64,000 nucleotides of DNA from Chrysemys picta bellii. Lineage: Eukaryota. The DNA lies in assembly GCF_011386835.1 (NCBI RefSeq), contig NC_088791.1:86428001-86492000 (forward strand), in the 5' to 3' direction. Positions 13,100-64,000 of the stretch are shown piece by piece. The notes beneath the pieces are model-generated. The model saw only the letters and a program-made list of their open reading frames with translations, ran no database searches and had not been told where the DNA came from. The position numbers were made by a program, and so were the translations under genes. Position 1 is the first letter of the stretch. The number at the start of each line of letters is the position of its first letter.

Positions 13100-13536
13100 A
13101 AGTAATGGAAATCTCCAGAGGCAGGTATAAATCAGTATGAAGAAAACGAGGTTAGTTCAATCAGGGAGGGTGAGGTGCTCTGCTAGCAGTTGAGGTGTGA
13201 ACACCAAGGGAGGAGAAACTGCTTCTGTAGTTGGAAAGCCATTCACAGTCTTTGTTTAATCCTGATCTGATGGTGTCAAATTTGCAAATGAACTGGAGCT
13301 CAGCAGTTTCTCTTTGGAGTCTGGTCCTGAAGTTTTTTTGCTGTAAGATGGCTACCTTTACATCTGCTATTGTGTGGCCAGGGAGATTGAAGTGTTCTCC
13401 TACAGGTTTTTGTATATTGCCATTCCTGATATCTGACTTGTGTCCATTTATCCTCTTGCATAGTGACTGTCCAGTTTGGCCAATGTACATAGCAGAGGGG
13501 AATTGCTGGCATATGATGGCATATATAACATTGGTT

Positions 13537-14842
13537 TTATCCTCACGCACAATTATTTCAAATTTGGTGACAATATATACCTCCAGACCAGTGGCACCGC
13601 TATGGGCACCCGCATGGCCCCACAATATGCCAACATTTTTATGGCTGACCTGGAACAACGCTTCCTCAGCTCTCGTCCATTCATGCCCCTCCTCTACCTA
13701 TGCTACATTGATGACATCTTCATCATCTGGACCCATGGGAAGGAGACCCTGGAAGAATTCCACCATGATTTCAACAGCTTCCACCCCACCATCAACCTCA
13801 GCCGGACCAATCTATACAGGAGGTCCACTTCCTAGACACCACTGTACAAATAAGCGATGGCCACATTAACACCACCCTATACCGAAAACCCACCGACCGC
13901 TACGCCTACCTTCATGCTTCCAGCTTCCACCCCAGTCACACCACACGATCCATCGTCTACAGCCAAGCACTGAGGTACAATCGCATCTGCTCCAACCCCT
14001 CAGACAGAGACCAACACCTACAAGATCTTCACCAAGCATTCTCAAAACTACGATACCCACACAAGGAAATAAAGAAACAAATCAACAGAGCCAGACATGT
14101 ACCCAGAAGCCTCCTGCTACAAGACAGGCCCAAAAAAGAAACCAACAGAACTCCACTGGCCATCACCTACAGTCCTCAGTTTAAACCTCTCCAACGCATC
14201 ATCAGTGATCTACAACCCATCCTGGACAATGATCCCTCACTTTCACAGACCTTGGGAGGCAGGCCAGTCCTCGCCCACAGACAACCCGCCAACCTTAAGC
14301 ATATTCTCACCAGCAACCACGCACCGCACCATAACAACTCTAACTCAGGAACCAACCCATGCAACAAACCTCGATGCCAACTCTGCCCACATATCTACAC
14401 CAGCAACACCATCACAGGACCTAACCAGATCAGCTACAACATCACCGGCTCATTCACCTGCACGTCCACCAATGTTATATATGCCATCATATGCCAGCAA
14501 TGCCCCTCCGCTATGTACATTGGCCAAACTGGACAGTCACTATGCAAGGGGATAAATGGACACAAGTCAGATATCAGGAATGGCAATATACAAAAACCTG
14601 TAGGAGAACACTTCAACCTCCCTGGCCACACAATAGCAGATGTAAAGGTAGCCATCTTACAGCAAAAAAACTTCAGGACCAGACTCCAAAGAGAAACTGC
14701 TGAGCTCCAGTTCATTTGCAAATTTGACACCATCAGATCAGGATTAAACAAAGACTGTGAATGGCTTTCCAACTACAGAAGCAGTTTCTCCTCCCTTGGT
14801 GTTCACACCTCAACTGCTAGCAGAGCACCTCACCCTCCCTGA
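13537..14842 (+). pseudogene. Penelope RT (C-terminal part) plus GIY-YIG endonuclease, frameshifted near 13803
   Basis: GTAMGTRMAPQYANIFM and YIDDIFIIW (RT); LYRKPTD and HPSHTTRSIVYSQALRYNRICS; CNKPRCQLC...MYIGQTGQSL...GHKSDIR (GIY-YIG). Confidence 0.93.
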
Positions 14843-62007: not shown

Positions 62008-62240
62008 AAGGCCTTTTCTTCACTAGAAAAAAGGTGTGTTCCTAACCCGAGGTAACTAGCAATCCTAGTGTAGATAAGGCAGTTTTAGTTTACAAATGAG
62101 TTAGCAGGTCCAGTTAGACTACAGTTTACCTTCATCTGCTAACTCATGTGAAAACTACAAACTGCCTTGTCTACAAGGATTTTACTTCCTGTTAGCTAAC
62201 ACAAGTTAAGAACAACCCTTTTTTTCCTAGTGAAGGTGCA
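62008..62240. mobile_element. Fold-back Harbinger-like MITE
   Basis: cttcactagaaaaaaggtgtgttcctaac versus gttaagaacaaccctttttttcctagtgaag. Inner arms gtgtagataaggcagt / actgccttgtctac. Confidence 0.6.
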
Positions 62241-63173
62241 CCCTGAGAGTGTAGTTGGGTCCAGTGAGAGTGTGCATGGGTGCCTGAGATGTTTTGCTTG
62301 CAATTAGTGATTGAAGGTTGTGGGCAGGCAGTGGAGAGAGAAGAGGATTAGATGAAGGGAAGGAAAGAGCTTGAGACAAGATAAGAAAGAAGAAAGTGGG
62401 GACTGAACAGAAGGAAGAGTTCTCAGCAATGAACAAAAGAAAGGTGTGGGAGAAAACAGGAGAGAAACAAGAGGGAAAAGGGAGAGAAAAATTATTGTTA
62501 AAGGAACCAGATAGTGGAAAAGAAGAAAGATGGTGGATTCTAGAAAGAAAAATAAAACACTAAAAAACAAAATGGAAAAAGGAAGAAAGACAAAAACATA
62601 GGAAGACAACGCAAATTGAAATAATTATTCCAATTTTAATGCCAAAATATTACAAATACAATGTTTTGTTTTATATGCAAGAAGTATCTTTGGTGCAATC
62701 CACGGAGCATTATCACGAGACCCCCTCCATTTACCAGCATATGTGCACTTAATATATGCACAGTTGGTTCTGGTAAAGTTAGGGGAGTTACTATCTGGGA
62801 GAATTTTGTGACTGCAAAGAGATGTTGCCACAGCTACTTGCTAGTCCATCCCTGGAGTGAGTTTCTTCTATAGGTAGGTGAGGAAGGGATTCCTTAATTC
62901 CACTGCAATCAGTGCAATGGGATGCTAGGTCCTACCACTGGGTCCACTCCAGTCAATTTGTCCATGCTTTCATCCTTAAATATGCAGTGAAGGTTAGTCT
63001 ACTTGTAACCCACACACCTCCTGGGTGTGGTGTTCTGTCCCATCTAGTGCCACTGAGACAGATAAATGAATGTGCTTTACAGCCTTAGCTAATAGCCATT
63101 TGGGTTTTGGCTCATGCACTAAGCTCCAGAGGCCCCAGGTTTGATGACGACCAAGGTCTGTCAGTGTTACAAG

Positions 63174-63191
63174 TGGGAGCTCATCCAGGAT
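63174..63191 (+). promoter_or_regulatory. tRNA-Pro primer binding site
   Basis: TGGGAGCTCATCCAGGAT versus PBS-Pro TGGGGGCTCGTCCGGGAT: 15/18, and two of the three mismatches are CpG-type transitions. Starts 2 nt after LTR1. Confidence 0.85.
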
Positions 63192-63353
63192 TTCAAGAGA
63201 AGTCTCTGAAGCTTGGGACACGCTTCCTCAGCTAGGGGAACTATGTAACCCACACACCTCCTTGGTGTGGTCTTCTGTCCCATATAGTGGCAGAGTGCAA
63301 GAGAGAGATTAATGAGTTTGCTCTACAGGCTCAGTTAACAACCAGTTGGCATT

Positions 63354-63409
63354 TAGCTCACGCAGTAGAGGCTCATGCACTAAGCTCCAGAGGTCCCAGG
63401 TTCAATCCC
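63354..63409 (+). promoter_or_regulatory. tRNA-Ala-like internal Pol III promoter (A box and B box) within LTR2
   Basis: A box TAGCTCACGCAGTAG and B box GGTTCAATCCC. Compare tRNA-Ala TAGCTCAGTGGTAGAGCGCATGC...GAGGTCCCGGGTTCGATCCC. Confidence 0.75.
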
Positions 63410-64000
63410 ACTCACCAGTGACAGGGTCTGTTGGTGTTACATTCTATGTATATTGTTCAGGGTGTTAATAATCATGTTGCTATTGTTACGGATATTATAT
63501 CTAGATCTATGTGTTTGTCCCCTTCTGACAAAAAACTCCCCTTCCACAATTTCAATGGGTGACTACCGTAATGCATTTCTGTCACTCACTATGATATAAC
63601 TTTCTCCTCAATCTGTCATGTCAATTTTCCATTCCCCTGATTTAACTTCATCCTTAAGAGTAACAGCTTGCTTTGCTTGATGAATAAGAAACCCATAGGT
63701 GCTTTCCTGCAAGTTCTCTCTTTTATAGTATCAAACAAATTGATCATTTAAATAAAGTAATTAATTCCTTTCAACTCTACTTTCACCAGAATGAAGAAAT
63801 TCATTTACTCCTTTTTCTAGTGAAAGAAAAAATGCAGCTAAGCTAATTTTTTTCTTGTAAGAACAGTAATCAAGCAACAATTGTCCAAGCAACAACTGAA
63901 GGAAGCTATTAGGTCTTAGAAAGATAGTTGATTGCACATATTTCACACAAGTGGAATCAAATTGCTTGGAAGACAGCAATTATCTATTACATTTTGGCAA

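Follow-up and report, generated by a model that had tools for sequence, protein, structure and literature searches.

Helenus, Cassandra and the copy in the window

TRIMs with a tRNA-derived promoter were named Helenus (TRIMp3) by Kojima in 2024 (Biology 13:119; PMC10886601). Their motifs are given there as TRGCY and GGTTC, the PBS regions of animal Helenus are found to resemble only those of Gypsy, and neither a target-site preference nor a terminator is given. According to that paper and its Table S1, vertebrate Helenus is known from the coelacanth, sturgeon, paddlefish and ostariophysan fish; the vertebrate families have LTRs of 162–227 bp, interiors of 43–112 bp, and the tRNA for His, Leu, or Lys as primer. 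In Table S1, a tRNA-Pro primer is entered only for the bivalve family Helenus-1_TeGr, and no tetrapod is found among the 235 rows. In Cassandra, each LTR holds a Pol III promoter and a terminator, the transcript runs from the 5' LTR to the 3' LTR, and the terminal repeat is 18 bp (PMC10886601). Cassandra is derived from 5S (A, IE, and C boxes), is plant-specific, has another PBS, and forms long tandem arrays, as far as it is described in the available part of PMC7215508.

The window, i.e. the whole 64-kb stretch of DNA analysed here, contains a TRIM copy of 438 bp (63004–63441), and no second copy was found within it. The parts of this copy are as follows.

63000..63003, + strand: left copy of the target-site duplication (TSD), TACT; the TSD of the family is 4 bp
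63004..63171, + strand: 5' LTR (LTR1), 168 bp, TGTAAC...GTTACA
63105..63108, + strand: T4 run of LTR1, intact, where the tRNA-like part begins; candidate position of a Pol III terminator
63108..63144, + strand: tRNA-like module of LTR1, damaged, the 5' half of the A box being fused to the anticodon-arm region through a 15-nt deletion
63138-63144, + strand: B-box core of LTR1, decayed
63172..63243, + strand: interior, non-coding, 72 bp, where most members of the family have 74 bp
63174..63191, + strand: PBS for tRNA-Pro, 15/18, preceded by a 2-nt spacer, AG
63234..63240, + strand: polypurine tract (PPT) AGGGGAA, ending 3 nt ahead of LTR2
63244..63441, + strand: 3' LTR (LTR2), 198 bp, TGTAAC...GTTACA
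63340..63354, + strand: small hairpin of LTR2, then the T-run site, which reads ATTT here and TTTT in the family
63354..63409, + strand: tRNA-derived module of LTR2, with the A box from 63354; it lacks an acceptor stem and is not a tRNA gene
63399-63408, + strand: B box of LTR2, GGTTCAATCC, 45 nt from the start of the A box
63442..63445, + strand: right copy of the TSD, TTCT, with one change relative to TACT

The layout given in the original prediction was recovered: TGTAAC begins at 63004 and 63244, GTTACA ends at 63171 and 63441, and the interior, the purine tract, and the 4-bp TSD with one change are in place. In four other organisms position 63443 is C, which still leaves one mismatch to TACT. 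The alignment of LTR1 with LTR2 has gaps of 6, 15, 10, and 1 nt and shows 140 identities in 167 aligned bases; deletions of 6, 15, and 10 nt explain why LTR1 falls short of the usual ~204 bp. The 15-nt deletion lies between two 8-nt direct repeats; the A box of LTR1 had been thought to be lost altogether, but only its 3' half is gone and its 5' half is kept. The missing 10 nt lie behind the B-box core. At the T-run site of LTR2, position 63351 is A here and T in other copies. Compared with the tRNA-Pro site in the available part of Fig. S2C of Kojima 2024 (PMC10886601), the PBS has the predicted three mismatches, all G to A; those at 63183 and 63187 are of the CpG type as proposed, and that at 63178 is not. 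The window copy is a dead member of its family.

Like Helenus, this family consists of elements below 1 kb, with two LTRs that carry a tRNA-derived A/B-box module, a PBS, a PPT, a 4-bp TSD, solo LTRs, a non-functional tRNA-like part, and a presumed Gypsy helper. All features of Helenus that were testable here (size, non-coding nature, tRNA module, PBS, PPT, TSD, multiple copies, and non-functional tRNA) are found in it. With LTRs of ~204 bp, an interior of 74 bp, and a total of ~480 bp, it falls inside the vertebrate range of Table S1, and differs from the vertebrate families listed there in its tRNA-Pro primer.

Two groups in the available part of the Helenus supplement are closest. LTR-11_DR and related ostariophysan families share the TGTAAC...GTTACA ends, an LTR of ~190–205 bp, and a number of LTRs in the thousands; by eye, a short hairpin, a T run, and the A box follow one another at a corresponding place in the LTR. 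They differ in a PBS for tRNA-His, a 43-bp interior, T3 instead of T4, reported tandem arrays, and LTR bodies that look unlike. The coelacanth families LTR1_LCh and LTR2_Lch have LTRs of 197–199 bp ending in GTTACA and, by eye, a hairpin and T run before TAGCTCA and, close to the 3' end of the interior, a word like the CTCGGGGACG of Gypsy type, as in the window family; they differ in a PBS for tRNA-Lys, a 112-bp interior, and a tRNA module that comes earlier within the LTR.

The original prediction had called the element Cassandra-like. This is analogy only, since Cassandra is 5S-derived, and no 5S match was found in an Rfam scan of 13 loci. What Cassandra shares with the mechanism proposed below is a Pol III promoter and terminator within each LTR and a very short terminal repeat, with the start in the 5' LTR and the end in the 3' LTR; the window family, unlike Cassandra, has a tRNA-derived module, and no tandem arrays of it were found. 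Nor is the element of a new kind, as had been suggested: TRIMs with tRNA promoters were named Helenus in 2024, vertebrates included (PMC10886601). The turtle is probably a new host group for this known kind of element. No record of a Helenus-type TRIM in turtles or other reptiles was found in the open literature, including the available parts of PMC5753468, PMC5381603, PMC12859917, PMC10946416, PMC12486564, and PMC7215508 (subscription papers, Dfam, and Repbase being outside the scope), in agreement with the prediction that a reptile description was lacking. It is quite possible that the family has been deposited in Dfam or Repbase but not described.

It appears, with a probability of about 0.8, that the family is a Helenus-type TRIM, likely transcribed by Pol III and likely mobilised by the proteins of an autonomous Gypsy element that uses tRNA-Pro. 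If this is true, the range of Helenus extends from fish and the coelacanth to amniotes, and a tRNA-Pro-primed family is added to those of vertebrates.

Copies, insertion sites and LTR pairs

In the turtle's own genome (2.37 Gb), a search found 3,257 candidates, of which 40 were scored and 30, including the window copy, were fetched (the search set). The interior is LTR-flanked and 72–74 bp long in all 30. The second set was anchored on a 21-mer at the 3' end of the interior, so that it was not selected by LTR. This 21-mer has 150 exact matches in the genome (reversed control, 0), and the first 100 places listed, minus 10 duplicated segments, make up the 90 loci of the anchored set, in which the interior is 72–74 bp in 58 of the 64 measurable copies. 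An LTR 21-mer has 832 exact matches (reversed control, 0). Because the interior 21-mer is kept in 11/30 search-set copies and the LTR 21-mer in 31/130 LTRs, the family may be estimated roughly at 400 units and 3,500 LTRs. Most copies are now solo LTRs, as are 26 of the first 30 loci listed for the LTR 21-mer. The LTRs amount to thousands of tRNA-like A/B-box modules, which are at risk of misannotation as SINEs or tRNA pseudogenes. The genome survey agrees with the original prediction of a TRIM: there are many copies, the short interior is of fixed length, TSDs and solo LTRs occur, and the A/B-box module is tRNA-derived. Neither a missing fixed interior nor missing TSDs were encountered in it.

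The LTRs of a pair differ by ~17% (median identity 0.83), and the family is therefore old. Beside the 438 bp of the window copy, three other copies measure 471–484 bp, and the longest ATG frame is 8–57 aa. The PBS matches tRNA-Pro at 18/18 positions in two and at 15/18 or more in 25 of the 30 search-set copies, and the AG spacer precedes it in 44 of 56 readable copies; no tRNA-Pro gene is among the 24 distinct tRNAs taken from the same genome. The tandem arrays for which a check had been proposed are absent from 114 loci (two split matches are not arrays), and a genome-wide tandem-array pattern gave one match, which is not an array either.

Among the 20 search-set units with both ends readable, the TSD is 4 bp and exact in 13 and within one change in 17, where swapped flanks give 1.8% and 12.6%, respectively; exact 5-bp TSDs are found in none of the 20. 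The corresponding values are 14/24 and 21/24 in the anchored set (three loci being also in the search set), and 9/19 and 14/19 in complete solo LTRs. The sequence at the sites of insertion was tabulated for the 35 non-redundant units whose TSD has at most one change. TG lies directly left of the TSD in 18 (p ~ 1 × 10-11) and CA directly right of it in 21 (p ~ 2 × 10-15), against a background of 7.5%. The flanks of solo LTRs agree (TG in 8/19, CA in 9/19). In four other organisms, where 145–402 contigs have a loose end at the start of the LTR, the summarised flanks also show TG before the four TSD letters. The target preference of the family is TG-NNNN-CA.

At least half of the words of the window stretch are present in 14 runs under seven organism labels; no RNA run is listed among them, which speaks neither for nor against expression. 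In four other organisms, contigs pass from unique flank into the window element on both sides; when 31 letters are required, three of the four have contigs bridging the 3' junction, and none has any bridging the 5' junction.

In a comparison of 85 units, non-CpG variants along the whole LTR were common to both LTRs of the same unit (positions 39, 71, 72, 101, 107, 108, and 144; p < 0.002 for each), whereas CpG sites are not shared. Such sharing is expected if one reverse transcription makes both LTRs. About a fifth of the units, however, differ between their LTRs at diagnostic transversions (14/60 at position 101), which exceeds what simple decay explains.

The 15-nt A-box deletion is unevenly distributed between the LTRs. 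Of the 90 anchored loci, 71 could be scored on each side (19 could not), and the deletion is present in 13 of the 3' LTRs, with shifted breakpoints in three or more of these, but in only two of the 5' LTRs (p = 0.005, Fisher's test chosen post hoc). It is also present in 4 of 24 scorable solo LTRs. Patterns of the deletion junction gave 25 genome-wide matches to the 3' LTR, only partly readable, and seven to the 5' LTR, two of which are other changes; both sets overlap with the anchored sample. The anchors of these patterns survive in 21/30 and 15/30 copies, and p is 0.03 after allowing for this. The deletion was found in both LTRs of the same unit in 0/58 cases, which is uninformative, since only ~0.3 are expected. 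Post-insertion decay should strike both LTRs equally and does not explain the 3' bias; one guess is slippage in the last plus-strand synthesis, that of the 3' LTR. An apparent 5'-specific deletion in the search set (10 versus 0) was an artefact of a query that itself carried the deletion, and the anchored set shows the opposite.

One TRIM copy with a foreign solo LTR in its PBS has multiplied within a duplicated segment, mostly on contig C4 (loci L068, L131, L136, L141–L143, L148, L150, L297, and L298). Nearby, L068 carries a stretch that looks like a VKORC1-type first exon. The foreign LTR ('LTR-B') was considered as a template-switch partner of the TRIM and rejected, because it is a solo LTR that was later inserted into the PBS of one copy and then duplicated. 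LTR-B also has 14 matches on C34, about every 30–37 kb and with identical flanks, and occurs with identical flanks and regular spacing on the small contigs C722, C913, C990, C4366, and C6023. The regular spacing suggests a long tandem repeat unit, for which an rDNA-like array is a mere guess.

The tRNA-like module and the predicted transcript

The boxes of LTR2 begin at 63354 and 63399 with the spacing of a tRNA, as had been predicted. When the LTRs were compared with 24 distinct tRNAs of the same genome, representing eight isotypes only, the best mean scores on the sense strand were those of Cys (48.7), Phe (48.2), and Ala (45.4), against ~24 ± 4.5 for shuffled tRNAs and 25–30 for Cys, Phe, and Ala on the antisense strand; the sense-strand score is ~5 S. 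D. above the shuffles. Judged by its sequence, the module is a tRNA-derived A/B-box unit. The proposed donor, tRNA-Ala, is not singled out, since Cys and Phe score higher among the eight isotypes sampled. No functional tRNA was found in the window by ARAGORN.

Among 64 intact LTRs, TAGCTCA is kept in 51, GGTTYRA in 52, GGTTC in 46, and the full GGTTCRANNCC in 21. The YGG position of the A box is a decayed CpG, with GG kept in 13/64 and RG in 38/64. Column agreement is 0.90 in the A box and 0.85 in the B box, compared with 0.82–0.92 in the rest of the LTR. The boxes are no better conserved than other parts of the LTR, which fits dead copies and is no proof of function.

The check for a run of four or more T, suggested in the original prediction, revealed one conserved position. 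Directly ahead of the A box, such a run is present in 120 of 130 LTRs; elsewhere in the LTRs there are just 15 runs, at scattered positions, and only two of 88 interiors contain one. The T-run columns agree at 0.99 against 0.82–0.92 elsewhere, although T columns escape CpG decay. The distance from T-run site to T-run site is 265–291 nt in 19 units. The hairpin before the run has a mean of -5.6 kcal/mol, against -1.8 ± 1.7 when shuffled (104 related copies, which are not independent). By eye, and in the available part of the Helenus supplement, a hairpin is followed by T4 just ahead of the A box in the sturgeon and paddlefish LTRs and by T3 in those of the coelacanth, cyprinids, and several bivalves, while some bivalve families have a T run behind the tRNA part.

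Conservation of T4 at a single position in the LTR, together with a path between the two sites that is nearly free of T4, fits read-through from the 5' LTR. Pol III would start a few bases ahead of the A box of the 5' LTR, where the T4 would be too close to stop it, and the transcript would take in the tRNA-like part, then the PBS and PPT, and lastly the first half of the 3' LTR, to stop at the corresponding T4. The predicted RNA would be ~280 nt long, with a terminal repeat (R) of only ~10 nt. It would be packaged in a Gypsy particle, where tRNA-Pro would prime the minus strand and the PPT the plus strand; the Gypsy integrase would insert the copy at sites of the TG-NNNN-CA type, and most copies would later collapse to solo LTRs. 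Transcription could, however, be aborted by a T4 so near its start, inside the first ten bases, and as a terminator a single T4 is weak. Most of the listed fish, coelacanth, and bivalve families of Helenus have T3 only at this place, and some bivalve families have their T run behind the tRNA, so that such a terminator may not apply to Helenus generally. The ends of the Helenus transcript, which were left open in Kojima 2024, may now be tested against the prediction of ~280 nt ending at one T4.

Two other readings of the element were weighed. If the family were an ordinary Pol II TRIM, in which a SINE or tRNA fragment had landed in the founder LTR and was carried along without serving as a promoter, the lack of excess conservation in the boxes would be accounted for, as would the absence of any Rfam tRNA match (RF00005) from 13 loci at E ≤ 1; Kojima 2024 (PMC10886601) also states that the promoter function of Helenus has not been validated. 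A landed fragment, on the other hand, does not account for the placing of the only conserved T4 of the sense strand exactly where read-through by Pol III needs it, nor for a clean A-to-B-box unit with tRNA spacing and without a SINE tail or second TSD, nor for the like layout seen by eye in unrelated animal Helenus families in the available part of the supplement, and this reading seems improbable to us. The chance that the structure arose when a full-length element suffered a single internal deletion, or by a chance tandem duplication, is next to nothing, as the copy survey refutes both: the copies with the interior of 72–74 bp each have their own TSD, the junction of the PPT with the LTR has three matches, all of them in TRIMs and never with another LTR, and no coding interior is present in nine checked loci. 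These are the nine anchored loci that apparently lack a 5' LTR; it is displaced by later insertions in five, one carries a 140-bp insert, and none is present within 9 kb in three.

Candidate helpers and neighbouring repeats

PBS-Pro sites without the TRIM interior behind them gave 123 and 19 matches, of which 30 and 19 loci were read; 38 long stretches were analysed (in one batch 18 of 20 were read, L106 and L108 being left out). In the loci read, no LTR or interior sequence is common with the TRIM beyond the junction of LTR end and PBS. No coding parent with the 3' end of the TRIM was found among the anchored and PPT-junction loci, and the autonomous element with the same LTR ends and PBS, for which a search had been proposed, is represented by partial matches only, with no family fitting throughout. 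The PBS-Pro loci fall into three groups: ERV-like, SCAN-gag, and PNMA-gag Gypsy. Two loci bear on the last group.

C1:33936110-33946109, minus strand: L105, a young PNMA-gag Gypsy with a 1,850-aa frame containing RT, RNase H, and integrase
L348:515-2357, on C8 near 61.89 Mb: chimera of Gypsy LTR and TRIM, joined exactly at the PBS

L105 has 1.5-kb LTRs that are 99.8% alike, a PBS-Pro, the GTTACA end, and a 4-bp TSD, and at least 40 LTR starts match at 100%. In solo LTRs of the PNMA-gag Gypsy, a sample biased by the query to one flanking base, the TSD is 4 bp and exact in 6/11 and within one change in 9/11, and 5 bp in 0/11. Its 3' end resembles that of the TRIM, with 5 of 200 shuffles reaching the score (eight ends tested). 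Its flanks prefer TA (TG 3/20, CA 3/20), and the young family is therefore not itself the helper; with these flanks and a far younger age, it can at most be related to the helper.

In L348, an older LTR of the PNMA clade (85% to the young one) is represented by its final 177 bp, which are followed by its T spacer, the PBS, and the TRIM interior and LTR. The chimera sits inside an inverted old solo LTR of the same Gypsy family, which has a 4-bp TSD, the 177-bp piece being in forward orientation. This fits strand transfer at a common PBS in one particle; as L348 is a single locus, later recombination is possible as well.

The helper had been predicted to be a tRNA-Pro-primed ERV or Gypsy, and the Gypsy half of this prediction is favoured. 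Two ERV-like PBS-Pro families account for 13 of the 30 PBS loci, and a gamma- or epsilon-type ERV using tRNA-Pro as helper would agree with the 4-bp TSD of L282, but the TSD is 5 bp in L284, the LTR ends are unlike those of the TRIM (...CAACA, ...CTTCA, with the start TGAAGG), and the 3' interiors are no better than shuffles (125/200 and 151/200 reach the score), so that an ERV helper is very unlikely. Two Gypsy lineages have both a PBS-Pro and TRIM-like ends: PNMA-gag with the right TSD length and other flanks, and SCAN-gag with the wrong TSD length. A SCAN-gag (Gmr1-like) helper, with the element otherwise as proposed, is a less likely alternative. The SCAN-gag elements, identified by Pfam PF02023, start with TGTAAC or TGTAGC, end with GTTACA, and have a 2-nt spacer before the PBS-Pro; their PPT stops two bases short of the LTR. 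In L093 the LTR-end/PBS junction is identical to that of the TRIM over 26/26 nt, a better match than that of PNMA-gag. One SCAN-gag 3' end scores as high as that of PNMA-gag (2/200 shuffles; eight ends tested), and Gmr1-like elements, according to the available part of bioRxiv 10.1101/2025.03.03.638093, abound in turtles and fish, while mammals and the other reptiles are depleted of them. Against these likenesses stands the TSD, which is 5 bp in all eight SCAN-gag elements with readable ends (six exact, two with one change) and 4 bp and exact in none, compared with 4 bp in the TRIM. The length of the TSD is set by the integrase.

Taken with a Gypsy helper, the PNMA-gag clade would be the nearest helper lineage found in the turtle's own genome, and the exact helper family was not found. 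The identity of the Helenus helper, left open in Kojima 2024, may now be sought by a signature of a 4-bp TSD and TG/CA flanks. A fuller account may be offered tentatively, with the odds somewhat against its holding in every part: the family would be the first Helenus of tetrapods, with a hairpin-T4 terminator, one LTR providing the promoter and the other the terminator, and an R of ~10 nt; the 3'-biased A-box deletion would be a strand-specific footprint of replication; and the chimera would tie the family to a PNMA-gag Gypsy whose integrase prefers TG-NNNN-CA.

Several further repeats were observed along the way. L092–L098 and L272–L275 contain several SCAN-gag families of ~1.7–1.9 kb that look non-autonomous, with PBS-Pro, LTRs of 370–410 bp, and 5-bp TSDs. 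L110, L282, and L284 belong to one ERV-like PBS-Pro family with LTRs of ~845 bp. A hairpin repeat at L012:1368-1443 and L019:1386-1471 matches Rfam mir-1677, mir-1803, and mir-1784 below the gathering scores, and is likely the transposon that gave rise to these families.

Within the window, positions 13161-14842 hold open frames that face each other from the two strands and that we take to be GIY-YIG/Penelope-like, and the window presumably also carries CR1-like frames. Nested inverted repeats occupy 62014-62235, with arms of 38 nt (62083-62160), 17 nt (62069-62175), and 15 nt (62018-62235), and probably represent a MITE-like element; an 18-nt arm of these repeats is matched at 63812-63829.
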